From an uncultured Hyphomicrobiales bacterium (GTDB lineage Bacteria; Bacteroidota; Ignavibacteria; Kapaibacteriales; UBA2268): DNA of 64,000 bases. A program made the position numbers and the translations under genes. Positions 1 through 53,013 of this stretch are shown piece after piece. Below the pieces are notes generated by a model that saw only the letters and a program-made list of their open reading frames with translations, did not search any database and was not told where the DNA came from. Numbering within the stretch: the stretch's first letter is position 1; each line of letters opens with the position of its first letter. Location: assembly GCA_964465945.1 (NCBI GenBank), contig CAYXMM010000011.1, positions 16,702-80,701 of the forward strand, given 5' to 3'.

Positions 1-698
1 TGAAAGTTTTGTCGGAGTTTACATCTCCACATACTACGATAACGCAGTTTTCTGGTCTATAAAATCTTTTGTAGAATTCTTTGCTATATTCGTATTGGTT
101 TGGCATATCTTTGATGTCTGCTTCGTAGCCGATGGTTGTATGTCCGTAAGTGTGGACTTTGAAGGCAGTGGCAACTAATTCGGTGATTAGGTTTTCGATT
201 GGAATGGTAAGATTTTTTCTATACTCACCATAAACGGCACCTGACTCTGTTTGAAAATCGGGTTTTAAGTATGATAAATGTTGAAATCTTTCGCTTTCGA
301 TGTCGATGACTCTTTCTAAGTCTTCGGCAGCAATGTTTAGGTGGTAGCAGGTGTAATCGTCGGTTGTATAAGCGTTTGCATCTGCACCTAATGAGACTAC
401 GATAGAATCATAAACAGTTTTTGGGTATTTTTTTGTTCCACGAAACATCATGTGTTCGAAGAAGTGTGCGAAGCCGGTTTTGCCTTCTTCGACTTCGTCA
501 ACGGAGCCGGTCCTGACTATTGTGTAATAGCTTGCTAAGCCCTCGGATGCTATTGGAATTACATAAACTTTCAGCCCGTTATCGAGCGTTTTTACCTTAT
601 AATCGTAAGGAAAGATTTTTCCTTCTTTTGACGATAAGGGTAAATTAATTGCAGTCATAAGAAATATCGCTCCTACAATTTGTAGATAAAATTTCAAC
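1..698 (-). CDS. M16-family zinc peptidase (insulinase-like), N-terminal part; the gene runs off the window start
   Basis: The reverse-strand translation begins MLKFYLQIVGAIFLMTAINLPL, which is a signal peptide. It contains the inverted zinc motif HFFEHMMFRGT (HxxEH) typical of M16 peptidases. The start codon is at 696-698. Confidence 0.75.
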
Positions 699-974
699 AT
701 ATTTCCCCTAAAATTATTAATTAGTTCATTTGCATATATGAATATTGCGATATTAAGTTTCAATCCGATTCTAAAAAGACATTTACCTTCAAAAAAAAAC
801 GTAAAATTCAATTTTATATCTACAAATTTAAGAATAAAAATTGAGAAATACGAAAAAACCCATAAACCTGTAGGGAACGGTTTCAAACCGTTCCATACAT
901 CATCAAGCGAATCCAAAATAAACAAAATGAATAGCCACCTGCTTTAGCTGGTGGAATAAATAAATCAGAAAAAC

Positions 975-1275
975 CCTAATCACCCACACGTCATTCTGAG
1001 GCACAGCCGAAGAATCCAGTAAAACAAACCCGAATTTATAAAAATAGTAGGGAACGCAAATTTGCGTTCCTAAACTCCTACAAAGTTAAATATCAATAGC
1101 CCCGAGTTTCAACTCGGGGAAAAGAAACCAATCCCACCCGTCATTCTGAGGCGACCCGTATTGAGCGAAGCCGAAATAAGCCGAAGAATCCAGTAAAACA
1201 AACCCGAATTTGCGTCAGCAAATTCTCCAAAAAAAACTCCAACGAAGTTCAACATCAATAGCAAACAAAAAACAC
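975..1275. repeat. Composite intergenic repeat block 1. It holds two copies of the core CCCGTCATTCTGAGGCGAAGCCGAAGAATCCAGTAAAACAAACCCGAATTT plus three hairpin modules.
   Basis: The core occurs at about 983-1040 and 1133-1210; the second copy carries a 28-bp insertion. A perfect 20-bp palindrome GGAACGCAAATTTGCGTTCC lies at 1051-1070. A hairpin CCCCGAGTTtcaaCTCGGGG lies at 1100-1119. A hairpin GAATTTGCgtcaGCAAATTC lies at 1205-1224. The same modules recur at 1911-2230 and, degenerate and inverted, at 38420-38650. Confidence 0.8.
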
Positions 1276-1362
1276 CCTTTTCTGCAAAAACACACAATAA
1301 TTTGTAATATTAAAATAAAAAAATATTTAAAACGTAAGTAAAGGAAAAAATTGGAATAAAAA

Positions 1363-1590
1363 ATGGAAATGAAAAATATAAACTTAGAGCAAAAGAAAAT
1401 CAACATAATAGAAAACATATTAAAGATTGACAATTCTGAAATAATAAACGAATTGCAGTTTATGTTGAATCATACTTCAAAGCAATTCACAATAGAAGAA
1501 TATAAAAATGAAATATTAGAAGCAGAGGACGACATAAAAAACAACAGACTAATATCAAACGAAGATTTAAAAGTGAAATTAGGATTATGA
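1363..1590 (+). CDS. Putative antitoxin, resembling the 'addiction module component' family that pairs with RelE/ParE toxins in Bacteroidota
   Basis: The protein is 75 aa. Its stop overlaps the downstream toxin start in an ATGA arrangement. The pattern KINIIENILKIDNSEIINELQFML followed by EEYKNEILEAEDDIKNNRLISNEDL matches the small helical antitoxins found upstream of ParE/RelE genes. This recognition is from memory and was not searched. Confidence 0.5.
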   Translation: MEMKNINLEQKKINIIENILKIDNSEIINELQFMLNHTSKQFTIEEYKNEILEAEDDIKNNRLISNEDLKVKLGL

Positions 1591-1889
1591 AATTAAACAT
1601 TTTTTGGACTAAGAAAGCAGAAAATGATATTTCATCAATAATACAATATTACAATAGTTTAGAAATGTATTCCATTGCAAAAAACATTTCGAAAAATCTT
1701 TTTAAAACCATAGAAGTAATTTCAGAATATCCAAACTTAGGAAAAATAGATAAAATATTAGGTAACAATTATAAATATACTTTATCATCTGGAATTTATA
1801 AAATCGTATATAAAGTAAATAAAAACAATTTAATTATTTTAAAAATATTTGATGCAAGAAGAAATCCAAATCAAATTTTAGAAGATTAA
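1587..1889 (+). CDS. ParE/RelE-family type II toxin
   Basis: The protein is 100 aa. The N-terminal segment IFWTKKAENDISSIIQYY and the C-terminal segment YKIVYKVNKNNLIILKIFDARRNP follow the ParE pattern (W..A..DL..I..YI ... YRIIYRV....V.ILRI.H.RR). It is translationally coupled to the upstream small ORF. Confidence 0.6.
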   Translation: MKLNIFWTKKAENDISSIIQYYNSLEMYSIAKNISKNLFKTIEVISEYPNLGKIDKILGNNYKYTLSSGIYKIVYKVNKNNLIILKIFDARRNPNQILED

Positions 1890-1910
1890 TACTATACCAT
1901 CATTAAGAGC

Positions 1911-2230
1911 AATCCACCCCGTCATTCTGAGGCGAAGCCGAAGAATCTCCCAAATACACACCCGTCATTCTGAGGCGAAGCCGAAGAACCCAGTAAAACA
2001 AACCCGAATTTGCGTCAGCAAATTCTCATTTATAAAAATAGTAGGGAACGCAAATTTGCCTTCCTAAACTCCAGCGGAGTTCAACATCAATAGCCCCGAG
2101 TTTCAACTCGGGGAAAAGAAACCAACCCCCCTCCCCGTCATTCTGAGGCAACCTGTATTGAGCGAAGCCGAAATAAGCCGAAGAATCTCCCAAACACCTG
2201 CAAAGTCATTATGACCGAAGGAAAGAATCT
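1911..2230. repeat. Composite intergenic repeat block 2, of the same family as 975-1275
   Basis: Core copies lie at 1917-1950, 1961-2010 and 2135-2195, with a degenerate copy at 2205-2230. The hairpin GAATTTGCgtcaGCAAATTC is at 2003-2022. The near-palindrome GGAACGCAAATTTGCCTTCC is at 2045-2064. The CCCCGAGTTTCAACTCGGGG hairpin is at 2094-2113. Confidence 0.8.
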
Positions 2231-2349
2231 CTTCATTTATTAAAATAATAAATCGTATAATTCCTTTGATACCTCAAATATAATAATTAGTTTTGCATAA
2301 GTTAAATTAAAAATGAAATAAATTTGTTAAATTTAAATTTATTTAAATA

Positions 2350-2805
2350 ATGGAAAGCAAAACCAATATCTTTGAAAAAATAAGTTTATTACTTCCAGGT
2401 TATAAGGGTTATAATGAAAGGGATAATAAAAGAAATTCTGATAAAATATTAAGAGATTATATATTTATTGAAATTTCGAAATTGATCAAAGAAATTCTAT
2501 TTAATGTTGATGATAATTATTTGGGTGATGACATTAATAAAATTAATTTTATAATAAAAAAATTAAAAAAAATTCAAGATAATATTAGATTTACTGAATA
2601 TGGACATTCATCACTTTTTAGTCAGTATAAAATTGAATTAAAAGATTTAGAAAAAATTTATAACGTTGATTTCAAAATGCTTGAAAAAGTCAAGTTACTA
2701 GAAACATTTTTAATTGAAAAAGATTTTATGAATATTGAAACAACAATAAAAGATTTAGAGGATATGCTTAAGGATAGATATATACTACTTAAAGGGAATA
2801 TTTAA
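2350..2805 (+). CDS. Hypothetical protein, predicted all-helical; first gene of the 4-gene operon
   Basis: This is a 151-aa ORF that is Lys/Glu/Ile-rich with no recognisable motif. Its stop overlaps the start of the next gene at 2805. Confidence 0.5.
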   Translation: MESKTNIFEKISLLLPGYKGYNERDNKRNSDKILRDYIFIEISKLIKEILFNVDDNYLGDDINKINFIIKKLKKIQDNIRFTEYGHSSLFSQYKIELKDLEKIYNVDFKMLEKVKLLETFLIEKDFMNIETTIKDLEDMLKDRYILLKGNI

Positions 2806-3785
2806 TGCCAGAATTAATGGAATTGATTGAATTTTTAGATGAAAATGGGGATACTATAGTAAAAAGGATTCCTGAAAAAGGTAGTGGTGAATTTAAATTT
2901 GGTTCTCAACTAATAGTTCGAGAAAGTCAAAATGCTATCTTCTTTCGAGATGGAAAATGTTTAGATGTGTTTCCACCAGGAAGACATGTTCTAAGAACTC
3001 AGAATTTACCTTTAATAACAAAATTTGTAACTTCATTAGGATATGGTGAGAATAGTCCTTTTAAATCTGAAGTTTATTTTATTAATTTAAAATTATTTAG
3101 AAATTTAAAATGGGGTACAAAGGAACCAATATTATTTAGAGATGATGAATTTAAAATGGTTAGATTAAGAGGCTTTGGACTATTTTCTATTACAATAATT
3201 GAACCTACATTGTTTTTAAATAAAATAGTTGGAACTCAAAATACTTTTAAAGAATCAGATATTCTTGGTTATTTAAAATCAATAGTTATTCACAAATTAC
3301 AGATTGTTTTATCAAAGTCTTTTAAAGCTGTATTAGATTTACCAAGTAATCTTGATAAAATAAGTTTATTATTAAAAAAAGAAGTATTACTTGATTTTGA
3401 CTCACTTGGAATTGAGTTAAATGATTTTAATATTATATCATTATCGCTTCCTCCTGAAGTCCAAAAAATTATAGATACAAAAACTGGTATGACTGCAGTT
3501 GGTAATTTAGATGATTTTATGAAATTTCAATTAGGAAAATCTATTTTAAATTTATCTGAAAATAAAAGCGATAGTTTTGAAAATAGTTTTGCTTCTGGTT
3601 CAGGTATTGGAATGGGGATGCTAATACCTAACTTTTTAAATCAATCAGTTAAAAATAATACAGAAGACAAAGAAGAAGATATATATAGTAAATTAACTAA
3701 ATTGAAAGAGTTATTCGATAAAGGTATTATAAATGAAGAAGAATATACAAATAGTAAAAGAAAAATTTTAGATAATATAAAATAA
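2805..3785 (+). CDS. SPFH/Band-7-like (Band_7_1 family) protein with a C-terminal SHOCT domain and no transmembrane segment
   Basis: The N-terminal block EFLDENGDTIVKRIPEKGSGEFKFGSQLIVRESQNAIFFRDGK...PGRH.L.T.NLPLITK...SPFKSEVYFINLK matches the TM-less SPFH family that includes B. subtilis YdjI-like proteins; this is from memory. The C-terminal KLKELFDKGIINEEEYTNSKRKIL is a SHOCT motif. Confidence 0.65.
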   Translation: MPELMELIEFLDENGDTIVKRIPEKGSGEFKFGSQLIVRESQNAIFFRDGKCLDVFPPGRHVLRTQNLPLITKFVTSLGYGENSPFKSEVYFINLKLFRNLKWGTKEPILFRDDEFKMVRLRGFGLFSITIIEPTLFLNKIVGTQNTFKESDILGYLKSIVIHKLQIVLSKSFKAVLDLPSNLDKISLLLKKEVLLDFDSLGIELNDFNIISLSLPPEVQKIIDTKTGMTAVGNLDDFMKFQLGKSILNLSENKSDSFENSFASGSGIGMGMLIPNFLNQSVKNNTEDKEEDIYSKLTKLKELFDKGIINEEEYTNSKRKILDNIK

Positions 3786-3799
3786 ATAAACGAATTTAT

Positions 3800-4930
3800 A
3801 TGAATTGTCCAAATTGTGGTAGTGAAATCGAAGATGAAATCTATACTAAATCAATAGAATGCGAATATTGTGGTTCTACCATTAATTTTAACGATATAGA
3901 TTTAGATTCAGAAAAAATTAAATTCCAAAAAAATATAAATGAAATCTCAAGTTTAATTAATTTGGATAATATTAAACTAGCTACAAAAAAATTAAATTTA
4001 ATGTTTGAATCTTATTCGGATAATTACAAAGTTTGGGAATTATGTGGAAGATTTGAATTTATTAAGATTATAAATAAACTTAATAAAACTCCTAAGGATA
4101 ATAATGGTAGAGATGACAGCGTCCTTAAAATTGATATAATAAAGTCTTTTGAAAAGTCATTTAGTAAATCTCTTGAATTAGTTAATGAGAATAATAAAAT
4201 TGAAATAATAAATTCGTTAGATAATTGTCTTAATGATTGCACAGATGCTCTTATAAAATCAAAAGATATTATGTTTTATTATGGATTAACTGAAAATCAA
4301 TATTATGCAGATAGGAGGCTAGAACATTGGTATATTTTGATTGAACAATTAATTGAACTTAAATATTTAATATCACAATATTTCAATTCTATTGACTTTG
4401 TTAGAAGTGTTAAAATACTAATAAAAAAATATTGTTTTAGAAATTTTATAGATGGTATATATATCCATAATTACGTAATAGTAGATAAATTAGATAGATA
4501 TGGACATCGTGATAGGAATGAAGCAATTGAATTTTTTTGGTTTGTTCCTTTAAATGATAAATATTTAAAATGGTACAAAAACTTATATAATGAATATAAA
4601 ATTGAATTAGAAGAAGAAGAAAATCAAAAATTTAATATGAAAAGTGAAGCATCGCTATCTAGTAATGAAAGTAAATGTTTTATTGTAACTGCAACTCTGG
4701 ATAATCCAAATCACTTAATAATTAAGGAGTTGCAGTTTTTTAGGGATGAAATATTATTAAAAAATAACATTGGAGTATTTGCAATTAGATTATATTACAA
4801 ATTTGGTCCAATTATGGCAAATTTTATTTCTAAATCTGAATTGCTGAAGTTTTTATCATTACACATAATTGTATTACCAATTCATAAAATCGTGAAAATT
4901 ATATTTAAGAGGCTTTATAATGGATACTAA
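3800..4930 (+). CDS. Double zinc-ribbon protein with a central helical region and a conserved hydrophobic C-terminal anchor-like module
   Basis: The N terminus reads CPNCGSEIEDEIYTKSIECEYCGS, two CxxC pairs. The C terminus reads CFIVTATLDNPNHLIIKELQFFRDEILLKNNIGVFAIRLYYKFGPIMANFI followed by the hydrophobic stretch LKFLSLHIIVLPIHKIVKIIF. I recall this CF[IV]xTA...FRD...YY..P motif as a recurrent C-terminal module, but cannot name the family with certainty. Confidence 0.55.
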   Translation: MNCPNCGSEIEDEIYTKSIECEYCGSTINFNDIDLDSEKIKFQKNINEISSLINLDNIKLATKKLNLMFESYSDNYKVWELCGRFEFIKIINKLNKTPKDNNGRDDSVLKIDIIKSFEKSFSKSLELVNENNKIEIINSLDNCLNDCTDALIKSKDIMFYYGLTENQYYADRRLEHWYILIEQLIELKYLISQYFNSIDFVRSVKILIKKYCFRNFIDGIYIHNYVIVDKLDRYGHRDRNEAIEFFWFVPLNDKYLKWYKNLYNEYKIELEEEENQKFNMKSEASLSSNESKCFIVTATLDNPNHLIIKELQFFRDEILLKNNIGVFAIRLYYKFGPIMANFISKSELLKFLSLHIIVLPIHKIVKIIFKRLYNGY

Positions 4931-6089
4931 ATTAATTAGAACATTTCACCCAGTAGGTCAAGGTGCATTTTATACTGAAGAATTTTATAATATTGAAGAA
5001 AAAATATTTACTAGAATTGCATACGATTGTGGTGGTTCAAATAAACCATTAATGAAAAATTATATTGAAAATCAAAGCGGGTTTGAAAAGGATTTACAAT
5101 TTGATGCAGGTTTTATTTCACATCTTGACAGAGATCATATTAATGGTTTAGAATATTTATTACGTCATTGTAAAGTAAAAAAAATATTTTTACCATTGTT
5201 AACCCCAAATGAAAAAATATATTTATTCTCAAAATATCAATCTGACATTGAAGAGAATGAAGAAGAAAAAGAAAATGACATTAATTTTCTAAACAATTTA
5301 TTTTTTGATAATTCAATTGAGGAAACCAGAATTTATCGTATAGGTAAATCAGAAACCCCACCAGAGACTGAAGATGAAAATTATATTGATATTTCAGGGG
5401 AGATTAATCAAAATGATCATAATGAAACAGTTTTAAAAAATAAACAAATCAAATTAAATAAAAATTGGGTATTTTCACCATATAATCTTAATACAGAAAT
5501 TTATATTTTAAAATTTATTACAGAAATAAAAAAAGTATTTCCCGATTTAACTGATGAGAAAATTAAAGATATAATTAAAAATAAAAAGGATTTAGCAGAA
5601 CTAAAAAAAATCTATAGAAATATTTTTAATGATGACTTAAATTTGTCTAATATGATTGTTTATAGTGGATATGATTATAATTCAAGAAATAGAAAAGAAT
5701 ATTATCATCACTGTAGATATGTTATTCATAATAATTTTAGATTTTATTGTGATTGTCATCCAAAATATTGTTGTTGTGCTAATTGTATGTATTTCGGTGA
5801 TTTTAAATCAAAAAATAAATCAAATTGGGATCAATTTGAAAATTATTATAAAAAATATTGGGATAATGTTGGTATGGTTCAAATTCCTCATCATGGTTCG
5901 TGGATTGATTACAATGAAGAAATAAATAAAAATCCAAAATTATCAGTGATTTGTTCAAATCCAGAACACAAAAAATATAAACACCCTCATAAAGAAACAT
6001 TAATATCAATTTTAGAAAATAGTGGTATTCCATTTTTGGTAACAAAAGAAATTAAAACTTTAAAAATATTTGAATATCATTTAAGATAA
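4920..6089 (+). CDS. Metallo-beta-lactamase-fold hydrolase of the ComEC/Rec2 type, a predicted nuclease-like enzyme, carrying a Cys/His-rich zinc-knuckle insert
   Basis: The variant motif-2 GFISHLDRDHINGL reads HxDxDH. The later segment VQIPHHGSWIDYN carries the PHHGS signature of ComEC-type MBL domains. A cluster HHCRYVIHNNFRFYCDCHPKYCCCANCMY is present. The start overlaps the stop of the previous gene. Confidence 0.6.
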   Translation: MDTKLIRTFHPVGQGAFYTEEFYNIEEKIFTRIAYDCGGSNKPLMKNYIENQSGFEKDLQFDAGFISHLDRDHINGLEYLLRHCKVKKIFLPLLTPNEKIYLFSKYQSDIEENEEEKENDINFLNNLFFDNSIEETRIYRIGKSETPPETEDENYIDISGEINQNDHNETVLKNKQIKLNKNWVFSPYNLNTEIYILKFITEIKKVFPDLTDEKIKDIIKNKKDLAELKKIYRNIFNDDLNLSNMIVYSGYDYNSRNRKEYYHHCRYVIHNNFRFYCDCHPKYCCCANCMYFGDFKSKNKSNWDQFENYYKKYWDNVGMVQIPHHGSWIDYNEEINKNPKLSVICSNPEHKKYKHPHKETLISILENSGIPFLVTKEIKTLKIFEYHLR

Positions 6090-6240
6090 AAAATATGTTT
6101 AGTTCATTTTGGAATTTACCACTCGAAACGGTGCAATTAAAGGAAAAACTCAACTCAATTAGTTGAAAGGTTATGTAGGAAATTTTGGTGATCTAGTAAA
6201 AATTTACTACTTAAGTGTTAATGACTTAACAAAATTTGGT

Positions 6241-6306
6241 AATCCTGCTTGACTTTTAAAGTGGTCAAATTCAGCCACTTTAAAATCAGGATTATTTGTT
6301 TTTCAC
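6241..6306. terminator. Bidirectional rho-independent terminator between the convergent MBL gene and kdsA
   Basis: The sequence AATCCTGcttgACTTTTAAAGTGG-tcaaattcag-CCACTTTAAAAtCAGGATT forms a long inverted repeat and is followed by a T-rich tract. Confidence 0.6.
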
Positions 6307-6319
6307 TAATTTAATTTCA

Positions 6320-7084
6320 TTATTCATTCACCCCATCCACTTTCAAAACAGTAGCGATAAAGTTCTCCACTTCATCAAGTTTGATTTGTGTGGCGGCGTC
6401 GCTTTTTGCATTTTTTGGGTCGGGGTGGGTTTCAAGAAATATTCCATCAATTCCGATGGCTGTTGCTGCTTTTGCAAGTCCTAAGGCAAATTCTCTTTGT
6501 CCCCCGCTTACTTCGCTTATGCTTGGTTGTTGAACTGAGTGTGTTGCATCATAAACGACAGGGTATCCACTTTGTTTCATTATCATTAGGTTTCGCATAT
6601 CTACGACAAGGTCTCCATAACCGAAGAATGTTCCTCTTTCGCATAACCAGATATTTTTGTTGCCTGTTGAAGCAACTTTTTCTGCTGCTTTTAGCATATC
6701 TTTACCTGCCATAAATTGTCCTTTTTTGATATTAACAATTTTACCTGTTTCGCCTGAAGCGATTAGAAGTTCTGTTTGTCTTGCTAAGAATGCGGGGATT
6801 TGGAGTACATCAACATAATTGGATGCAAGGTGGATTTCTTCGACTGTGTGGACGTCAGTTAAGCATTCTAAGTTGTGTTTTTTAGCGGTTTCGCTTAGGT
6901 ATTGTAGAGCAAGTTCGTCTCCAATTCCTGTGAATGAGTTTAAACTTGTTCTGTTTGCTTTTTTATACGATGCTTTTAGGTATAATTTAAAATTATACTT
7001 TTTTGAAAGTTCGCTTAGTTTTTCTGCGACTTCTTCTATGAGTTCTTTTGATTCTAAGAGGCATGGTCCCGCGATTATAAACAT
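6320..7084 (-). CDS. kdsA: 3-deoxy-8-phosphooctulonate (KDO-8-P) synthase
   Basis: The 254-aa protein begins MFIIAGPCLLES and matches KdsA along its full length. Confidence 0.9.
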   Translation of the reverse strand: MFIIAGPCLLESKELIEEVAEKLSELSKKYNFKLYLKASYKKANRTSLNSFTGIGDELALQYLSETAKKHNLECLTDVHTVEEIHLASNYVDVLQIPAFLARQTELLIASGETGKIVNIKKGQFMAGKDMLKAAEKVASTGNKNIWLCERGTFFGYGDLVVDMRNLMIMKQSGYPVVYDATHSVQQPSISEVSGGQREFALGLAKAATAIGIDGIFLETHPDPKNAKSDAATQIKLDEVENFIATVLKVDGVNE

Positions 7085-24342: not shown

Positions 24343-24654
24343 ATGTTAAGACAAGGTGATGTTGTTGATCATAGTAGTGAATTAGTTAAGGAATTAGCTA
24401 TGAAGTTAATTAATTCTGATTTTCGTGAAAAGACAACACATCAATTAGCAAAGTATATAAACAGACTAAAATTTAGTGTAGAATCTACGCAATATCATCA
24501 TTATAATTGTGTTAGATTAGTAAAACTAATTAATCAAGAAATTAGTGAGTATTATTTTGAGAAATATGGCGACCCTGAAAGAGCAATGAATCATGAGTGT
24601 CTAATATATATTAAGTTATTAAATACATTAGTTAATAAATATCATAATGTGTAA
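24343..24654 (+). CDS. Hypothetical protein, coupled to the downstream nuclease gene
   Basis: It is 103 aa and overlaps the next gene by 1 nt. Confidence 0.4.
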   Translation: MLRQGDVVDHSSELVKELAMKLINSDFREKTTHQLAKYINRLKFSVESTQYHHYNCVRLVKLINQEISEYYFEKYGDPERAMNHECLIYIKLLNTLVNKYHNV

Positions 24655-27600
24655 TGAAGTATTTAATACATAGTAAGTTAGTTGAAGAATTAAGCCAATA
24701 TTATAATGAAAAGAATATTGAAGAAATTCTGATAAGCCAAGAAAAACAACATTCAAAAAACAAGACTATAATTGTTTATCCTACTACAAGACTTAAAACA
24801 TATCAAGAAAAAGAATTTATAAATAAACTTTGGGAAAATTCTAAAACTCCTTATTCACGTGATATATTCTTTAATTTTAGTGGTTTTTTATCTCATATTA
24901 AGCATTTAACTAATTTTAAAGAAGATAAAAGTTTAATAAAAGAAGATGAATTTTATGCGATAATGAAGCTTGTTTATGATGAAGTTGAGTTATCATATTT
25001 TGCGAAGGAAAATGAAAAGCCACGAAGGAAAATAAATAATTTGCTTTCAAGTGTTATATTTGGTTTCTTAAAAAAGGGTGTTAGTTTAACAGATTTAGAG
25101 TCAAAATTAAATGATAACTCAACAAATAGTGATAGACTTCAAGATATTATATTGATTTATAAAACATTTTTAGAAAAGACAAGTAACTATACTAATGAAA
25201 CTAAGCAAATTTATGATTTTAATGAATTTATTATTAACAACAATGTTGATTTTTCACAATTAACTAACGACATTTTTTACTTTGAGCATTTTAAGGAGTT
25301 TAATAGAAATGAAATTGAGTTGCTAAACACTTTGTTTAAACACAATTTAAAATTAATTATTAATTTTAAATATTTGAGTAAAAATAATCCGAGTGGTAAT
25401 ATTTTTGGAATTGGATATATTTTGTCTGATTGTTGTACTATAACTGAATTGAATAATGAGAGTGAAGTTTATAATAATATATCAACGCAATTGTTTTCTA
25501 ATAATTATGATGATAATAATGTTAAAAGTGATACTCATAGTAAAATAAATATTGTAGAGTTAGAGAATGATAAAAGAGAAATTAAGTATATTACTACTCT
25601 TGTTAAAAAATTAATAGTTGAAGATAATATTCTCCCAAAAGATATATTAATTTTAGCGCGAAATCCAAAAGGATATTCAAAATTACTAAAAAATGAATTT
25701 GATAAGAATAGTATACCTTTAAATGTCAGTGATAGACCAGCATTAAAAGAGTCTTCGATTATTGATTTAATTATTAATTATTTAAAATTAATTGATGCTA
25801 ATTTTAAATTATTAAATTTAGAAAAGGTAATTAAATCACCTTTTTTAGTTTATGATAGAGATAAGATTAATATTAATAAATTTATTAGTATTACTAAAAA
25901 ATATAGAAGTTTTTATGGTAATTATAATGAAAGACAAGATTATTTTAATAAAATATTAAATAATAATAATAATAATGAAGAAATTAGAGGTTATATTTCT
26001 CAATTAGAGTATATATTTGATTTTTTACATATAATAAATATAAAGAGTTCGTTTAGTAAGGCTGATTTTCTTGGTTTGGTTACAAGTTTTGTTAATTTAT
26101 TAAAATTAGATAATTTGAATAATATTATTAGTAGTGAAGGTGCAAGTTTTAATGATTTTTTAGTAACTCGTGAGAAAGAGAGGATATATAGTGCTATTGA
26201 CGCTTTGCTTGTTTCTATTGAGAGTGTTTATGATGTTAATTATAAAATTAATAATAAATTGGAATTGAGACTTAGTGAAATAATTGAAGAGCTTGATTTT
26301 ATTAAAGAGAAAAATAGATTTCAAATTAGAGAGTTATTTGATACTTCAGTTACGTTCACTTCAGTGGAACAGGCACGTGGTGTTGATAGGAAAGTAACAA
26401 TAATATGCGGGTTATTAGAAGGGGAATTTCCACTTCATTATAAAACAGATGAGGTTTTAGGAATTGATTTAACAAGTTCTGAGAATAAGCATATTGCGTT
26501 AGAGGAAGAATTATTTTTTGAAGCGATTTTTGTGAATGAAGCTTTGCCGGAACATCTTTATTTGACTTATTATAATAAAAAGGGAGTAAAAGATGTCATT
26601 CCTTCTCATTTTATGAATGAATTAAAGCGAGTTTTAAATAATAATTCTATTAATTTAATAAATATAGAAGAATCAGGTAATTTTATTAATAAATATAGTT
26701 TAATTAAGATTATTAATAAATTAAATAATATTGATTCTTTATTAGATAATTCTATAATTAATGGTTATTTAAGTGAATTAACTCAAACAAATAAATATAG
26801 AATAATAGGATATAAGCGTAATACTTTTTCGGCTTCACGTTTGGATAATTTTTATCATTTTCCATATTATTTTCTTTATAATAGTATTTTTAATATGAAG
26901 GAATTGGATAGTTATGAAGAAGAGCCAATGATAAAAGAAGTGGGGACTATTAATCACGAGATTTTATTTGAATTGTATACATTATTAAGTAATAATTCAA
27001 ATCTTAATAATTTGTCTCCATTTTATTTGCAATCTGTAAATGATAATTATAATAATATTTATCCTATAAGTTTTTTTAATTTTGATGTGGAATTTATTAA
27101 AAGTCAATTAGACAAAATTATTAATAATGTGTTTAATAAATTTCCACAAAATGAGTTTTTTAGTTTACAGAAGTACATTTCAAAGAAAATAATTTTAAAG
27201 ATATTAAATAACGAAATTAATTTAAAAAAATCAACTGATGGATTTGCTTTTCCAAGTGCTTTTGAGTTCAAATTTGGCTATAATAATGATAATTTTACAA
27301 TTCAGAATACTCACAGTCAAACGATTAATTTTAAAGGTAATATTGATAGGGTTGATTTAGATTTTGATGGTAGTAATTTATTATTAAGCGTTGTAGATTA
27401 CAAGTCAAGTGATAAAGATATTAAATATAGCTCTAGTTTTATTAAAGATGAATATAGCTTTCAGATGTTTTTATATCTTAAAGCAATGAAATCTGTTTTG
27501 ATTAATAATTTTAAATTGATAAAAGATGGGGTTGAATATATATTAAATGAAGATAATGTTATTTATAATTATGCTGCGTATTATAATATAAATAAAATAA

Positions 27601-27788
27601 GTTTAAACTATTATTTAAATAGAAGTAAACTTAAAGAGAAAGATGACCCTAATACTATAATTAGTTCAAAATTTGATGAAATGGAAAGTGAAATATTTAA
27701 TGTCTTTACCAAATTCGATAGTTTGGATTTAGCGCATTTGAATAAGGTTAATAAATACTCACCACAAACAAGTTTATTAATTAGATGA
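24654..27788 (+). CDS. PD-(D/E)XK nuclease family protein, AddB/RexB-like, with a degenerate helicase-like N-terminal region
   Basis: The C-terminal RecB-type nuclease motifs GNIDRVDLDFDGSNLLLSVVDYKSS are present. There is no Walker A motif and no adjacent AddA/UvrD partner. Confidence 0.65.
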   Translation: MKYLIHSKLVEELSQYYNEKNIEEILISQEKQHSKNKTIIVYPTTRLKTYQEKEFINKLWENSKTPYSRDIFFNFSGFLSHIKHLTNFKEDKSLIKEDEFYAIMKLVYDEVELSYFAKENEKPRRKINNLLSSVIFGFLKKGVSLTDLESKLNDNSTNSDRLQDIILIYKTFLEKTSNYTNETKQIYDFNEFIINNNVDFSQLTNDIFYFEHFKEFNRNEIELLNTLFKHNLKLIINFKYLSKNNPSGNIFGIGYILSDCCTITELNNESEVYNNISTQLFSNNYDDNNVKSDTHSKINIVELENDKREIKYITTLVKKLIVEDNILPKDILILARNPKGYSKLLKNEFDKNSIPLNVSDRPALKESSIIDLIINYLKLIDANFKLLNLEKVIKSPFLVYDRDKININKFISITKKYRSFYGNYNERQDYFNKILNNNNNNEEIRGYISQLEYIFDFLHIINIKSSFSKADFLGLVTSFVNLLKLDNLNNIISSEGASFNDFLVTREKERIYSAIDALLVSIESVYDVNYKINNKLELRLSEIIEELDFIKEKNRFQIRELFDTSVTFTSVEQARGVDRKVTIICGLLEGEFPLHYKTDEVLGIDLTSSENKHIALEEELFFEAIFVNEALPEHLYLTYYNKKGVKDVIPSHFMNELKRVLNNNSINLINIEESGNFINKYSLIKIINKLNNIDSLLDNSIINGYLSELTQTNKYRIIGYKRNTFSASRLDNFYHFPYYFLYNSIFNMKELDSYEEEPMIKEVGTINHEILFELYTLLSNNSNLNNLSPFYLQSVNDNYNNIYPISFFNFDVEFIKSQLDKIINNVFNKFPQNEFFSLQKYISKKIILKILNNEINLKKSTDGFAFPSAFEFKFGYNNDNFTIQNTHSQTINFKGNIDRVDLDFDGSNLLLSVVDYKSSDKDIKYSSSFIKDEYSFQMFLYLKAMKSVLINNFKLIKDGVEYILNEDNVIYNYAAYYNINKISLNYYLNRSKLKEKDDPNTIISSKFDEMESEIFNVFTKFDSLDLAHLNKVNKYSPQTSLLIR

Positions 27789-38329: not shown

Positions 38330-38362
38330 AAAATCCGACTTTAAAGTCGGATTTTTTTTTTG
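38330..38362 (+). terminator. Rho-independent terminator of ppiD
   Basis: The hairpin AAAATCCGACTTtaaAGTCGGATTTT is followed by a T10 run. Confidence 0.75.
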
Positions 38363-38419
38363 TTTGTTTTTTAAATCTTCGGAAGGGTTTGAAATCTTGC
38401 GAAGGTGGCGTATAAATTT

Positions 38420-38650
38420 AATTAGTCATTCTGAGCGAATGCGAAGAATCCAGAATTTTTTAAATTCAATAATATTATCATTAAATAATTGTTTCATTTA
38501 CTAGTAAATGATGAATTTTTTTGCTGGATATTTCGCTGCGCTCAATATGACGGCTTTCTTGGATTTATCTCACCCGTCGCCCTAAAGGGCACTTCCCTCA
38601 ATGAAAGAGAGAATCTGGATTTTTCGCTCCGCTCAGAATGACGTTTATCT
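38420..38650. repeat. Repeat block 3: inverted degenerate copies of the GTCATTCTGAGCGAAGCGAAGAATC core in a MITE-like arrangement
   Basis: A forward copy AGTCATTCTGAGCGAATGCGAAGAATCCAGAATT lies at about 38437-38470. A reverse-complement-type copy GAATCTGGATTTTTCGCTCCGCTCAGAATGACG lies at about 38613-38646. A further degenerate copy GCGCTCAATATGACGG lies between them. The family is the same as at 975-1275 and 1911-2230. Confidence 0.7.
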
Positions 38651-38723
38651 TTAGTATATCTGTATTTTTTCTGAATTATGTATAAAAAAATCCTAACTTT
38701 GTTCTAAGTTAGGATTTTTTTTG

Positions 38724-38888: not shown

Positions 38889-39995
38889 TTGCTTATGGTT
38901 AAAGGTTGGGCTACTGAAGATATTCTTAAGCTATCTTTTTATAAAGGTGTTAGTGATAGTTTAATATATGAAATAATTGATTTATATAGTTCTTTCGATG
39001 AATTTATAAATGCAAATCTACCCTCAAAAATAAATTTAATTTTAAATCAAGGGGAACTTTTTCAAAGTAATAAGTTTAAGCCAGAGGATAAAGTTCAAAA
39101 GCAATTGGAAATTTGTAATAATAATAATTTCAAGATTATTTCTTTTTGGGACGATGACTATCCAAAGTATCTTAAACATATTTATTTACCACCGCCTTTT
39201 ATTTTTGTTCGTGGTTCGTTGGAAAGCTTGGAAAAGGAATGTATTGCAATAGTGGGGACTCGTAAAAATTCGAGTTATGGGAAGATTCAGACTGAAAGGT
39301 TTGCAGAGTATTTTGCAAATCGAGATATAGTGGTTGTTAGTGGACTTGCTTATGGGATAGATACTTTAGCTCATAAAGCGGCAATTAAAACTGGTGGGAA
39401 AACTATTGCTGTGATTGCTTCTGGCTTAGATTGTGTTAGTCCTTCAACTATGGAGAAGAATGCTGATGAGATTGTAGAAACGGGTGGTTGTGTAATTTCT
39501 ACTTTTAAGTGTGGGGTAAGAGCTTTGCCACCTTATTTTTTAGCAAGAAATAGAATTATTTCTGGGTTGTCAAAGGCAGTTTTAGTAATTGAAAGTAGAT
39601 ATAAGGGCGGGGCATTAAATACTGCAAGATTTGCATTAGACCAGAATCGCGACTTGTATGCTTTGCCTGGGAATGTGTCAAGTGAAACAAGCGATGGAAC
39701 GAATAAATTAATTGCTGATTCATCTGCAAAAGCAGCTCTTAGCCCCGAATTTGTATATTTAGACTTAGGGTTTAAAAATAGTTTTAATATCACAATAAAT
39801 GATATTAAAAAAGTTGAGTTTCAATCTAAATCTGAAGAGATGATATATAATACTTTAAGTCAAGAACCATTGCATATTGATGAGATTATTAATATAACTG
39901 AACTTGAAACATCTATTGTTATGGTTGATTTGCTTAATCTTGAGTTTAGGAACTTAATTAGGCAGTCTGCTGGAAAGCAATATTATAAATTATAG
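38889..39995 (+). CDS. dprA: DNA-protecting protein DprA (SMF)
   Basis: The start is TTG at 38889; an ATG at 38895 is an alternative. The segment IAIVGTRKNSSYGK...VVSGLAYGIDTLAHKAA is the DprA Rossmann core. Confidence 0.8.
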   Translation: MLMVKGWATEDILKLSFYKGVSDSLIYEIIDLYSSFDEFINANLPSKINLILNQGELFQSNKFKPEDKVQKQLEICNNNNFKIISFWDDDYPKYLKHIYLPPPFIFVRGSLESLEKECIAIVGTRKNSSYGKIQTERFAEYFANRDIVVVSGLAYGIDTLAHKAAIKTGGKTIAVIASGLDCVSPSTMEKNADEIVETGGCVISTFKCGVRALPPYFLARNRIISGLSKAVLVIESRYKGGALNTARFALDQNRDLYALPGNVSSETSDGTNKLIADSSAKAALSPEFVYLDLGFKNSFNITINDIKKVEFQSKSEEMIYNTLSQEPLHIDEIINITELETSIVMVDLLNLEFRNLIRQSAGKQYYKL

Positions 39996-51179: not shown

Positions 51180-52154
51180 TCAGTTATGTTTACTTTTAAT
51201 TAGTATTCTAAAATAAGGATATTTGCCATTAATTGACAAATCTTTACCATCGTTCCCTTTTCTGAATTTAACTATTTCAAATTGCTCGGGATTAAATTTA
51301 TGTAAAAAAGTAATAGGTACCCCCATATAGCCCTTATAGTCTATCGGTATATCTTGTGTCTGATTTACATTAATTCCCTCATAATTATCATATTTTGGAT
51401 ATTCATTTTCATTACCTATATATCTTTTAGTAAGTTTAATATTTTTATGTCGCTCAGAAATATCTAAGTTGGTAAGCCACAAGCAATTATTTGGAGATAC
51501 TATTCTGTTACCTAAATTATCAATACGTGCCTCTGTACCATAAAGATTATAATACTCTGGAACAATAAAACCTGAAATACCTCTTCCTAGATTTATACCT
51601 AACCATGCTTTATTTTCTTTAATTAGTTTAAAAATTTCTTTATAGGTTATTGCATTAATATTTCCAATTATTAAGAACTTTTTATCGTATTTAACTAGTT
51701 GAGCAACATACTCTCTAAATAGTGAAAAAGGAGGGTTGGTAACAACAATATCAGATTGCTTTAATAAATTAATACTTTCTGAACTACGAAAATCTCCATC
51801 GCCATTAAAATATATAATATCTAGTGAACTAAATGTATTCTCATCTAATTCTTTACCAACATACTCACAGAAAAATCCTTTTTTCTCTTCTTGATTGCTA
51901 AATAAATCGTTGTTTCGTTCTATATAACATGAAGCAATTAATTTCTTAAGACCTAATTCTTTAAAGTTTAGGGCAAAGTATTTGAAAAAATTACTACTTC
52001 GGGGGTCATCGCAGTTACAATAAACTACTTTATTTTTAAAATGATCTTTATAATGTTTTAATTCACTTTCAATATCAATAAGTTGAGTGTAAAACTCATC
52101 ACTCTTTGATTTTTTTGCTTTTTGCAATAATTTATTTGTTGAATTTCTTGCCAT
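51180..52154 (-). CDS. N6-adenine DNA methyltransferase of the EcoRI type, predicted to modify GAATTC
   Basis: It is 324 aa. The N terminus MARNSTNKLLQKAKKSKSDEFYTQ...VVYCNCDDPRSSNFFKYFALNF...VTNPPFSLF is near-identical to my recollection of M.EcoRI (MARNATNKLLHKAKKSKSDEFYTQ..., 326 aa). The NPPF catalytic motif is present. Confidence 0.8.
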   Translation of the reverse strand: MARNSTNKLLQKAKKSKSDEFYTQLIDIESELKHYKDHFKNKVVYCNCDDPRSSNFFKYFALNFKELGLKKLIASCYIERNNDLFSNQEEKKGFFCEYVGKELDENTFSSLDIIYFNGDGDFRSSESINLLKQSDIVVTNPPFSLFREYVAQLVKYDKKFLIIGNINAITYKEIFKLIKENKAWLGINLGRGISGFIVPEYYNLYGTEARIDNLGNRIVSPNNCLWLTNLDISERHKNIKLTKRYIGNENEYPKYDNYEGINVNQTQDIPIDYKGYMGVPITFLHKFNPEQFEIVKFRKGNDGKDLSINGKYPYFRILIKSKHN

Positions 52155-52178
52155 TTTAAATCTTTCTTGCTTAATAAA

Positions 52179-53013
52179 TTACTTTTGTTTTGTTAACTGA
52201 ACAAATAGATCGCTACCTAATATTTGAAGAGAGGTTTTGGAAATATCAAGCATAATATCAAACATACTTTTTTCATTCCACTTCCCACCTTTTCCTTGAG
52301 TATATATAGATGTTGATTGAAGCATTATTGATTTATCTTTATGCTTAATGTACTTATTCTTGCACAAGTTAGTGTTAATTGGTAATCCATAGTTTGCAGA
52401 AGTTAATCTATCTAATCTATTAAGCATTCCTGAATTGTATTCTAATGTAACAACTCTACCATCTGGTCTTTTAATTGAAATAGTTTCGGTTAGAAAATTT
52501 GAACCTTCAAGAAATAAGACGTAAGGAAAATGAGATTCTGATAACATTAAATTAGCGATTTCTGAAATGTTTTTATGTGACCTTTCAATTGCATTACCAG
52601 CTGCCATAAGGTCTTGATTATTTCCTTTACCAACAAGTTTTCCACTTTTGATATTTTCTATATCTTTTCCTTGATGTTTAGCTTCAGATATTAATATTAT
52701 TCTCCAATTTCCATAATCATCTTTAACTTCTATTATTCCTCCATCGGGTTTAATACTTGAATTTGATACAAACAGAGTTTGCCCTAATTCAGGATCAATT
52801 TTTTGTAATGCTTCATTAATTTCCTTTTACTTATATTTGTCTTGTATTTAAAAGATAATTGTGGAAAATCTTTTTTAAGTTGGTTAATTATTTGGTTTGA
52901 AATTTTTCCAACAGTGGGGTCAAGTGATTTTGCTCCATCACCAAATATACCAACAACTCCTTTAGATTCTTCGTGCTGATTCGTTAATCTTTCAGATTGA
53001 TTTTTTTAGACAT
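52179..53013 (-). pseudogene. R.EcoRI-homologue restriction endonuclease gene disrupted by two -1 frameshifts
   Basis: Its C-terminal 142 aa (MAAGNAIERSHKNISEIANLMLSESHFPYVLFLEGSNFLTE...) is near-identical to EcoRI endonuclease residues about 137-277 as I recall them. The N-terminal half is readable only across three frames. MSKK reads in frame 0. Then QSERLTNQHEESKGVVGIFGD...QLSFKYKTNISK follows after a slip in the A7 run (plus-strand T7 at 53001-53007). Then KEINEALQKIDPELGQTLFVSNSSIKPDGGIIEVKDDYGNWRIILISEAKHQGKD follows after a slip in an A4 run (plus-strand TTTT at 52826-52829). Restoring one A at each site would give a continuous protein of about 278 aa with the PD...EAK catalytic residues. 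Confidence 0.75.

Follow-up and report, generated by a model that had tools for sequence, protein, structure and literature searches.

The stretch of DNA that we analysed, which we call the window, is 64,000 nt of contig CAYXMM010000011.1, from an uncultivated lineage of Kapaibacteriales; all coordinates count from its first letter. Near its left end, between a gene for an M16-family peptidase and kdsA (3-deoxy-8-phosphooctulonate synthase), a ParE-type toxin-antitoxin pair lies between two blocks of short hairpin-like repeats. We will argue that these blocks are probably a mosaic array of repetitive extragenic palindromes (REPs) around a resident pair, in a hotspot of gene exchange. For comparison, we gathered seven related Kapaibacteriales loci through homologues of the antitoxin and the toxin: six of these relatives carry REPs, and one, L227, has the same locus without them. 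L121, which is mentioned often below, is contig CBFIFP010000004.1 of a Candidatus Kapaibacteriales metagenome-assembled genome. The features of the interval are as follows (the two kinds of REP, GTAG and CGTC, are explained below):

1-702, minus strand: 5' part of the M16-family peptidase gene, the conserved left flank (from its translation; orthologues in L121, L217, L219, and L227 match Pfam Peptidase_M16)
870-896, plus strand: GTAG-tagged palindrome, GTAG-GGAACGGTTT-C-AAACCGTTCC (palindrome search; conserved in L121)
935-954, plus strand: small palindrome CCACCTGCTTTAGCTGGTGG, with ATAG before it (read from the sequence)
975-1275, plus strand: left repeat block, two tandem units (self-comparison and unit alignment)
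989-1018, plus strand: CGTC REP no. 1, CGTC-ATTCTGAGGC-ACA-GCCGAAGAAT-CCA (27-mer search)
1047-1072, plus strand: GTAG-tagged REP, GTAG followed by GGAACGCAAATTTGCGTTCC (palindrome; DNA fold of -8.9 kcal/mol, z = -5.4)
1100-1119, plus strand: palindrome CCCCGAGTTTCAACTCGGGG, with ATAG before it (DNA fold of -9.0 kcal/mol, z = -5.0)
1139-1192, plus strand: CGTC REP no. 2, whose loop holds a second, smaller hairpin of this type, TATTGAGCGAAGCCGAAATA (direct-repeat search)
1206-1225, plus strand: palindrome GAATTTGCGTCAGCAAATTC (DNA fold of -7.1 kcal/mol, z = -6.0)
1363-1590, plus strand: presumed antitoxin gene, 75 aa (open reading frame [ORF] with a 4-nt overlap with the toxin gene)
1587-1889, plus strand: ParE-type toxin gene, 100 aa (Pfam PF05016 ParE_toxin, E = 1.8e-9, 38.5 bits against a cutoff of 23)
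1911-2230, plus strand: right repeat block, comprising a short unit, a full unit, a nested REP, and a degenerate copy (self-comparison and unit alignment)
1920-1949, plus strand: CGTC REP no. 3 (similarity to L121 and L218 stops in or just after its loop, at about 1935)
1963-1992, plus strand: CGTC REP no. 4 (27-mer search)
2006-2025, plus strand: palindrome GAATTTGCGTCAGCAAATTC, second copy (palindrome search)
2041-2066, plus strand: GTAG REP, second copy, with one stem mismatch (palindrome search)
2094-2113, plus strand: palindrome CCCCGAGTTTCAACTCGGGG, second copy (palindrome search)
2136-2189, plus strand: CGTC REP no. 5, of the nested type and 96% identical to no. 2 (direct-repeat search)
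2204-2228, plus strand: degenerate CGTC-like copy GTCATTATGACCGAAGGAAAGAATC (read from the sequence)
2350-6089, plus strand: strain-specific cargo, a four-gene operon of low G+C content (22-28% in 1-kb windows, against about 30% for the genome)
6320-7084, minus strand: kdsA, the conserved right flank (NCBIfam equivalogs above their cutoffs)

A preliminary description of the sequence had proposed a ParE-type toxin-antitoxin pair at 1363-1889, and we agree: a toxin with the ParE fold is preceded by a small overlapping gene, as in type II systems of the ParE/ParD kind. The 75-aa antitoxin matched no family in Pfam, NCBIfam, or PADLOC. We found nine homologues of it, and wherever we looked up the context, each was upstream of a ParE-type gene or its remnant. 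The toxin has one homologue in a collection of 5.8 billion proteins. Exact look-ups of the toxin, of the antitoxin, and of an antitoxin that is 100% identical to it (P0122) returned no record. The toxin has decayed in two relatives, with the antitoxin intact in both: in L121 (3625-3927) the window's GAA is changed to TAA, an in-frame stop, and in L227 (2028-2060) it is deleted after about 10 codons. In another lineage (L222-L226), a homologue of the pair that is 68% identical lies 3' of a Rieske-protein gene and is followed by small unannotated genes that vary among the contigs (124 and 188 aa versus 192, 181, and 135 aa); we found no REPs and no attC candidates around it. The 85 nt that precede the antitoxin's start codon are A/T-rich and conserved. 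Also, an A-rich motif, AAAAACNC..TTTTCTGCAAAAA, lies 5' of the pair at 1268-1300 and occurs again at L121:7835-7866 and L227:2685-2715, in the A-rich stretch around small HicB-like ORFs; the copy in L227 is directly before kdsA. This motif may be a shared promoter or operator, or it may be part of the spacer repeat.

The two hairpin-rich blocks do lie on either side of the pair, but their modules are not in shuffled order, as had been thought. Instead, 975-1191 and 1949-2188 are colinear (217 and 240 bp, with 90.8% identity over aligned columns, indels of 20 nt and 3 nt, and a spacing of 974-997 nt), so the pair is bracketed by a direct repeat of about 220-240 bp. Each block is about two tandem units of roughly 130-175 nt each. 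A unit begins with a C/A-rich leader and continues with a CGTC hairpin, CAGTAAAACAAACCC, a GAATTTGC hairpin, an A-rich stretch, AACTCC..GGAGTT, and finally CAACATCAATAGC. The units align in register, with optional hairpin inserts of 20-38 nt, and G+C content rises and falls in a wave, with 40-65% in the hairpins and 7-50% in the spacers. The CCCCGAGTTTCAACTCGGGG palindrome is present in some units and absent from others, and the GTAG REP at 1047-1072 is missing from the orthologous unit of L121.

The modules themselves were mostly as first described. The GAATTTGCGTCAGCAAATTC hairpin is present at 1206 and 2006, and the CCCCGAGTTTCAACTCGGGG hairpin at 1100 and 2094. GGAACGCAAATTTGCGTTCC is a perfect palindrome at 1051-1070, but its copy at 2045-2064 has one mismatch. 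A 51-mer that had been quoted as the core has near-copies at 1961 (1 mismatch) and 987 (3 mismatches) but no exact copy. The 27-mer GTCATTCTGAGGCGAAGCCGAAGAATC occurs three times with at most 3 mismatches (at 990, 1921, and 1964), as compared to 0 times in 100 shuffles, and two further copies of this type (1137-1190 and 2134-2187) have a 24-nt insert in the loop. The family is not confined to 975-2230: it also occurs at 870-896, at 935-954, and at 38424-38643. The palindrome CCACCTGCTTTAGCTGGTGG at 935-954 is inside a stretch of about 58 nt that is present in the window and in L219 and is missing from L121. We saw none of the marks of a MITE (miniature inverted-repeat transposable element): an inverted-repeat search of 700-2400 found small local palindromes only, without terminal inverted repeats bounding a block or a unit, and the unit alignments have no flanking duplications of the kind expected at a MITE target site. 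We also note that ORFs of 43-69 aa run across the blocks (738-947, 1109-1297 on the minus strand, 1210-1341, and 2026-2193 on the minus strand) and read through the hairpins (for example, ...VGNGFKPF...). It is almost certain that none of them is a gene. ORFs of this sort are known to yield spurious "hypothetical proteins," and short ORFs over blocks like these should be annotated with that in mind.

The core hairpin reads CGTC / ATTCT-GA-GGC / GAA / GCC-GA-AGAAT / CCA. It consists of a tag, then a palindrome made imperfect by a tandem G.A mismatch, and then a tail. Di Nocera, De Gregorio and Rocco (2013, BMC Genomics 14:522; PMC3733652) split REPs into GTAG-tagged and CGTC-tagged superfamilies, and they defined a CGTC REP by an unpaired CGTC (or TGTC or CCTC), a stem of 8-9 positions that starts with AT, a loop of 4-5 nt (enlarged in some families), and an unpaired tail of 3 nt that is approximately CCA. 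They found CGTC REPs in Proteobacteria, Chlorobi, Bacteroidetes, Spirochaetes, and Thermotogae, and the superfamily includes dRS3 from Neisseria and RPE-4 and RPE-6 from Rickettsia (PMC3733652). The window contains nine copies of the CGTC type, at two loci. The tag is CGTC in seven of the nine and AGTC in the other two; the tail is CCA in six and CTC in three. The stem, ATTCTGAGG/CCGAAGAAT, has nine positions (seven Watson-Crick pairs plus the tandem G.A), and it starts with AT and ends with AT in every copy. The centre is 5 nt long, either CGAAG or CACAG in the simple copies in the blocks and CGNAG in the two minus-strand copies near 38.5 kb; the exceptions are one copy with 6 nt and two copies with 29 nt and a nested mini-hairpin. 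Judging from their sequences, the core hairpins are CGTC-tagged REPs as defined by Di Nocera and colleagues.

The copies outside the blocks form a second cluster:

38424-38643: three CGTC-type copies, on the plus strand at 38424-38452 and on the minus strand at 38524-38552 and 38615-38643 (pattern search)

A SurA-like gene and tRNA-Phe converge on the intergenic region that holds this cluster. Each copy has the sense orientation of its own upstream gene and comes after that gene's terminator-like hairpin, and one copy has a compensatory stem, ATATT/AATAT. The tags of the outer pair point outwards, so these two copies are head-to-head, whereas all of the CGTC copies in the blocks are head-to-tail. 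A mini-palindrome, GCCCTTTAGGGC, lies within 38330-38720, and next to the cluster is dprA (38889-39995), which is a widespread gene.

Similar hairpins are found in viral contigs: the generic pattern GTCATTCTGAG-N4-34-CGAAGAATC matched more than 120 stretches, and their inner stems vary in sequence yet are complementary. Most of these copies have the TGTC/CTC variant of the tag and tail, and 47 of the 65 copies that are 25 nt long have CGNAG at the centre. In a sister type, GTCATTGCGAGCGNAGCGAAGCAATC, which has ATTGC/GCAAT stems, C precedes GTC in 89 of 133 copies and the tail is CCA in 70 of 133. A test for covariation in the outer stem, with an open pattern, was uninformative because a single stem type (ATTGC/GCAAT) made up 125 of the 133 copies; the tag and the tail were nonetheless confirmed. 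A literature search by literal sequence returned chance matches to primers only.

The second kind of hairpin belongs to the other superfamily. GTAG REPs are defined by a GTAG tag that is followed by a palindrome of 5-13 bp with a short loop, and the window has GTAG and a palindrome at 870, 1047, and 2041; the GGAACGCAAATTTGCGTTCC and GGAACGGTTTCAAACCGTTCC palindromes are each preceded by GTAG. Among the window's ORFs of at least 120 aa, we found no match to a RAYT gene (REP-associated tyrosine transposase; TnpA-REP, Y1_Tnp), nor to transposase, Y1 transposase, or integrase (Phage_integrase) families. The lack of a transposase in the window agrees with the report that CGTC REPs have no known dedicated transposase (PMC3733652).

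The locus varies among relatives. The states that we observed are:

Window: two units on the left; intact pair; three or more units on the right, then the four-gene island of low G+C content
L121, left side and pair: two units without the GTAG or CCCCGAG inserts; toxin with an in-frame stop
L121, right side: half of a nested REP (a unit count of 0.5), a tyrosine recombinase gene, a cluster resembling those for RiPPs (ribosomally synthesized and post-translationally modified peptides), and small HicB-like ORFs
L217, L219, and L221: one unit on the left; intact pair; two units on the right
L218: contig begins within a unit; intact pair; on the right, one nested REP, an FG-GAP/type IX secretion system (T9SS) gene, and kdsA
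L227: no REPs, and another gene abuts the antitoxin; about 10 codons of the toxin; on the right, small HicB-like ORFs and kdsA

Across the seven related loci, the number of units ranges from 0 to more than 3, whole hairpins have been gained or lost, and the cargo after the array is different in each state. (L217 is the sole contig of L217, L219, and L221 that reaches past the units, and what comes next is the start of a probable secreted-protein gene.) L121, L217, and L219 are 96% identical in the M16 gene, and yet the array and cargo of L121 are unlike those of the other two; therefore, the turnover is recent. On the right, kdsA has about 76% nucleotide identity to L218 and L227, and similarity resumes 3 nt before its stop codon (L227) or at the stop codon (L218). 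Several metagenome contigs start, end, or carry runs of N inside the array (L216, L217, and L218-L221). We also tried to find empty sites by scanning metagenomes with the M16 gene, but the scan was unusable: the best relatives were 68% identical and nearly free of hairpins.

The four-gene operon in the window is missing from L121, L218, and L227 at this position. It encodes a 151-aa protein (with a weak match to the LIMLP_15305 family), an SPFH/Band 7 protein that has a SHOCT tail, a zinc-ribbon protein that also contains a CFI-box-CTERM domain, and a 389-aa protein with a metallo-beta-lactamase (MBL) fold (with weak matches to LmuA, RTasMBL, Avs1a, and 6A-MBL). It is possibly a defence or stress island. 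PADLOC found nothing in the pair and the downstream island beyond the weak MBL-fold matches.

Sequence identity is also a mosaic. Relative to L121, L217, and L219, the window is about 75% identical in the M16 coding sequence up to about 560, and from there it is 90-98% identical through the 5' end of M16, the intergenic region, the left array, and the pair. Overall, the flanks of these lineages are about 75-79% identical. L227 has no jump in identity on the M16 side. At the other end, similarity to L121 and L218 stops at about 1935, inside CGTC REP no. 3 (GGCGA|AGCC); in an alternative alignment of L121 to nested REP no. 5, similarity also stops inside the hairpin. The simplest reading would be a single lateral replacement that involved one lineage resembling the window and another resembling L121, with one end in M16 and the other in the array.

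We think it likely that the interval between M16 and kdsA is a hotspot of gene exchange, in which the ParE-type pair is a resident and the blocks around it form a mosaic array of REPs. A REP-like family that marks a recombination hotspot and delimits the adjacent island was one of the suggestions in the preliminary description, and it has held up: the hairpins have the marks of both superfamilies, synteny and high identity end in a REP, and the cargo is variable among strains. We infer that the array itself promotes recombination. The repeats would work as DNA, offering substrates both to unequal or illegitimate recombination and to crossovers with incoming DNA, the second of which would be located in a conserved flank. 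Single hairpins would be added in the manner of REPs, beside a short tag. The pair would be a resident that tends to preserve the segment, rather than the cargo of a transposon. The 91% direct repeat would be a by-product of the growth of the array, and it could permit the loss or looping-out of the pair by RecA.

Several observations count against this view. First, nearest-neighbour DNA parameters predict weak folding for the CGTC hairpin (-3.7 kcal/mol, z = -0.9), and its nested form folds unconvincingly, so its status as a hairpin rests on its conserved symmetry with tandem G.A mismatches and not on predicted stability. (The perfect palindromes fold at -7 to -9 kcal/mol, with z of -5 to -6. 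Mini-hairpins of the GCGAAGC type are unusually stable, which the fold model does not capture.) Second, the five CGTC copies in the blocks are head-to-tail, whereas published CGTC REPs are mostly head-to-head dimers, with a negligible number of head-to-tail pairs and rare clusters (PMC3733652). Third, we found just one such hairpin in 682 kb around the M16 genes of more distant relatives, and among 185,579 representative genomes, the spacer 22-mer CCAGTAAAACAAACCCGAATTT is in one stretch, which is L121 at the same locus. This implies that the composite block is specific to the locus and that the hairpins are the only parts that belong to wide families. Fourth, only one event of exchange can be inferred because the jump in identity is at the same place in all of the comparisons. 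Finally, no recombinase is known to act on the hairpin sites.

Could the array work mainly through RNA or transcription instead? It might contain 3' untranslated region (UTR) stabilizers or attenuators after the toxin, terminators or insulators against minus-strand read-through towards M16, or a structured non-coding RNA. All of the hairpins in the blocks are sense to the pair and to the downstream operon, the copies at 38.4 kb are each sense to the upstream gene, and a CGTC REP starts about 20-45 nt past the toxin's stop codon in every REP-bearing relative that reaches there (the contig of L220 ends earlier). Also, REPs are reported to be mainly 3' of genes and are believed to be transcribed. 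We folded the blocks, as had been suggested, and the plus strand did beat its shuffles (z = -4.3 for the left block and -3.0 for the right), but on the minus strand z was only -1.5 and -1.3. There are five terminator-like sites, as compared to 1.2 expected, and four of these are on the minus strand; these hairpin-plus-U-tract sites arise because the plus-strand linkers are A-rich. On the other hand, divergent genes flank the left block, which is upstream of the conserved A/T-rich 85 nt and is probably outside of the pair's mRNA. Whole hairpins differ among close strains, and the copies in viral contigs have just a modest bias in orientation (51 in the same direction as neighbouring ORFs and 31 opposite, with crude ORF calling). 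The breaks in gene content would also be left unexplained. Overall, we consider it unlikely that the array acts mainly at this level. A dedicated family of structured RNA, which had been another of the early suggestions, is unlikely, because hairpins come and go between close strains and the spacer modules are at one locus only; Rfam gave no relevant match at the gathering threshold or even at E ≤ 10. The hairpins may act as 3'-UTR elements or insulators, which would be typical of REPs.

It had also been suggested that the pair is carried by a repeat-mediated mobile cassette, and this is supported in a weak sense only. In the full sense, the blocks would be the ends of the cassette, and the pair would move by transposition, or by site-specific excision and integration at the CGTC hairpins, with a copy of the site on each side. 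The pair and array look laterally exchanged, being far more alike between lineages (90-98%) than the flanks are (about 75-79%), and the 91% direct repeat brackets the pair. Similarity stops in a hairpin loop, two REPs have a 24-nt insert exactly in the loop, L121 has a recombinase gene beyond a half REP, and dRS3, which is in the same superfamily, is a known target for the integration of filamentous prophages in Neisseria (PMC1797815). However, six of the six REP-bearing relatives have the pair at the same locus between M16 and kdsA, and there is no recombinase, transposase, or integrase in the 64 kb. The toxin's single homologue also speaks against mobility, as does the presence of the antitoxin at the locus in L227, without REPs, and of the 68%-identical homologue elsewhere, again without REPs. 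We doubt strongly that the pair is mobile in this full sense.

The recombinase gene in L121 encodes a protein of 274 aa. In NCBIfam, this protein comes closest to "site-specific tyrosine recombinase/integron integrase", for which its score of 215.7 bits is just short of the cutoff of 220. On one side of the gene is the left part of a nested REP, and on the other is a sequence that resembles the right half, GGTCGGAATAAGCCGAAGAGACC. A tblastn search of the window with this protein found nothing. The family of the recombinase is a large one: of the 8000 candidates that were scored, 7096 proteins had E ≤ 1e-20. In metagenomes of the Fibrobacteres-Chlorobi-Bacteroidetes (FCB) group, relatives of the recombinase have the same attI junction, AAC|TCATTTATTTACG, joined to differing first cassettes, which encode either a LinB-like nucleotidyltransferase or a pterin-binding enzyme. 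Near these relatives are core boxes of the GCCCAAC and GTTAGGC types, with attC-like boxes in L204 and in L208/L211. Around P0003 and P0025 (L204-L215), there are divergent cassettes beside the integrase, and in the P0025 set the first cassette varies among contigs at one and the same AAC|TCATTT junction. The relatives in L208-L215 have ordinary attI junctions and attC-like core boxes (the boxes are the same in L204), not REPs. We had considered that the L121 gene might be an integrase-only element that is specific to REPs and nested in one, but we rejected this, as its relatives are in ordinary integron layouts and many of them are on contigs of about 1 kb. Given those layouts, we treat the recombinase as cargo that abuts the array and not as the enzyme of the REPs. 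Within L121:4024-6755, the recombinase gene is followed, in divergent orientation, by a small ORF that resembles a precursor, an MvdD-type ATP-grasp gene, and a 170-aa ORF; these divergent genes look like a microviridin-like RiPP cluster.

A bolder idea, which we also regard as a long shot, is that CGTC REPs at this locus are landing sites for a site-specific or single-strand-specific recombinase, so that the array would be an active platform for gene capture, of the type that is known from Neisseria. This would be compatible with similarity that ends in a loop, with mini-REPs that are inserted in loops, and with the L121 integrase beyond a half REP and the right-half-like sequence on its far side. 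If it were true, the hairpins would be targets of a recombinase, which bears on the open question of how CGTC REPs are mobilized.

We give hardly any credence to the remaining idea, that the units are attC-like sites of an integron or of an integrase-less array of cassettes with the pair as a stabilizing cassette, and we consider it largely refuted here. Toxin-antitoxin cassettes are common in chromosomal integrons, the L121 recombinase is of the integron type and lies about 60 nt past the half REP, and the units resemble the attC sites of sedentary integrons in being homogeneous. But on either strand of 700-6400, there is no RYYYAAC...GTTRRRY pair at attC spacing, that is, no R'' (RYYYAAC) and R' (GTTRRRY) boxes that close a hairpin of 55-140 nt. 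Also, the units have no overall dyad symmetry, the four downstream genes form an operon, overlapping or abutting without any intervening sites, the window has no integrase, and in L121 the array is past the 3' end of the integrase gene, while attI and the cassettes would be expected on the other side.

As for the rest of the window, its ORFs of at least 120 aa are ordinary chromosomal genes, except for an EcoRI-type restriction-modification pair at 51180-52607. The methylase is full length. The endonuclease ORF is 142 aa and covers positions 121-257 of the 257 in the profile, and the nuclease is probably truncated, as there is no ORF upstream that could supply its N terminus. Another ORF, of 1044 aa (24654-27788), encodes a PD-(D/E)XK nuclease domain; it lies in a stretch with 21-25% G+C, as compared to about 30% for the window, and is possibly another acquired gene.

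How does the locus compare with known systems? Like ParDE systems, the pair has a small upstream gene that overlaps the gene for a 100-aa toxin with the ParE fold by 4 nt, but the antitoxin matches no described family and the toxin is very rare in public data. As in integrons with toxin-antitoxin cassettes, homogeneous structured repeats surround small gene units that include such a pair, and in one relative an integron-type integrase adjoins the array. The differences are the lack of R''/R' boxes, of dyad symmetry in the units, and of an integrase in the window, along with the array being on the wrong side in L121. With the published CGTC REPs, the hairpins share the tag, a stem that starts with AT, a 5-nt centre, the CCA tail, an intergenic location, the lack of an adjoining transposase, and a precedent in Chlorobi and Bacteroidetes. 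They differ in the stem itself, in the conserved tandem G.A and the GNA-type apex, in their head-to-tail arrangement rather than head-to-head dimers, and in having two copies with a second mini-REP nested in the loop; four families have been published, and we place these hairpins at the level of the superfamily. The GTAG REPs resemble those that are associated with RAYTs and those in the bacterial interspersed mosaic elements (BIMEs) of E. coli, in that GTAG is followed by a palindrome of 8-10 bp with a short loop and in that they cluster in a mosaic with other REPs. In contrast to BIMEs, the orientation does not alternate, and we saw just three copies, all at one locus.

The closest parallel is with the Neisseria intergenic mosaic elements, or NIMEs, that were described by Bentley et al. 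(2007, PLoS Genet 3:e23; PMC1797815). NIMEs are strain-variable arrays of dRS3 and repeat sequence (RS) elements, in which short, GC-richer inverted repeats alternate with spacers of 50-150 nt and lower G+C content to give a wave; the end points of recombination fall in the arrays, and "minimal mobile elements" sit between conserved genes (PMC1797815). The locus in the window has the same properties: arrays of GC-richer inverted repeats from the same superfamily with lower-GC spacers, array lengths that vary among strains, recombination end points in the arrays, and differing cassettes between conserved genes. It differs in its phylum and its sequences, in having two arrays in 64 kb, and in its locus-specific spacers, as compared to more than 100 dispersed RS families in Neisseria. 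Because the stems (ATTCT/AGAAT) do not fit the dRS3 consensus, ATTCCC-N8-GGGAAT, and because the spacer 22-mer is at a single locus, we view the array as NIME-like in how it would work and not as a NIME. The authors of the Neisseria study remarked that such arrays were not on record outside of Neisseria (PMC1797815). With CGTC hairpins, mosaic arrays, and variable cassettes alongside them, the arrangement that is best known from Neisseria now also appears in an uncultivated lineage of Kapaibacteriales. This makes for a compact natural test case, in which a single locus with two conserved flanks has at least five different states across relatives and a crossover maps into a hairpin. It could help with the old questions of whether gene exchange is promoted by REP arrays and of what acts on CGTC REPs.

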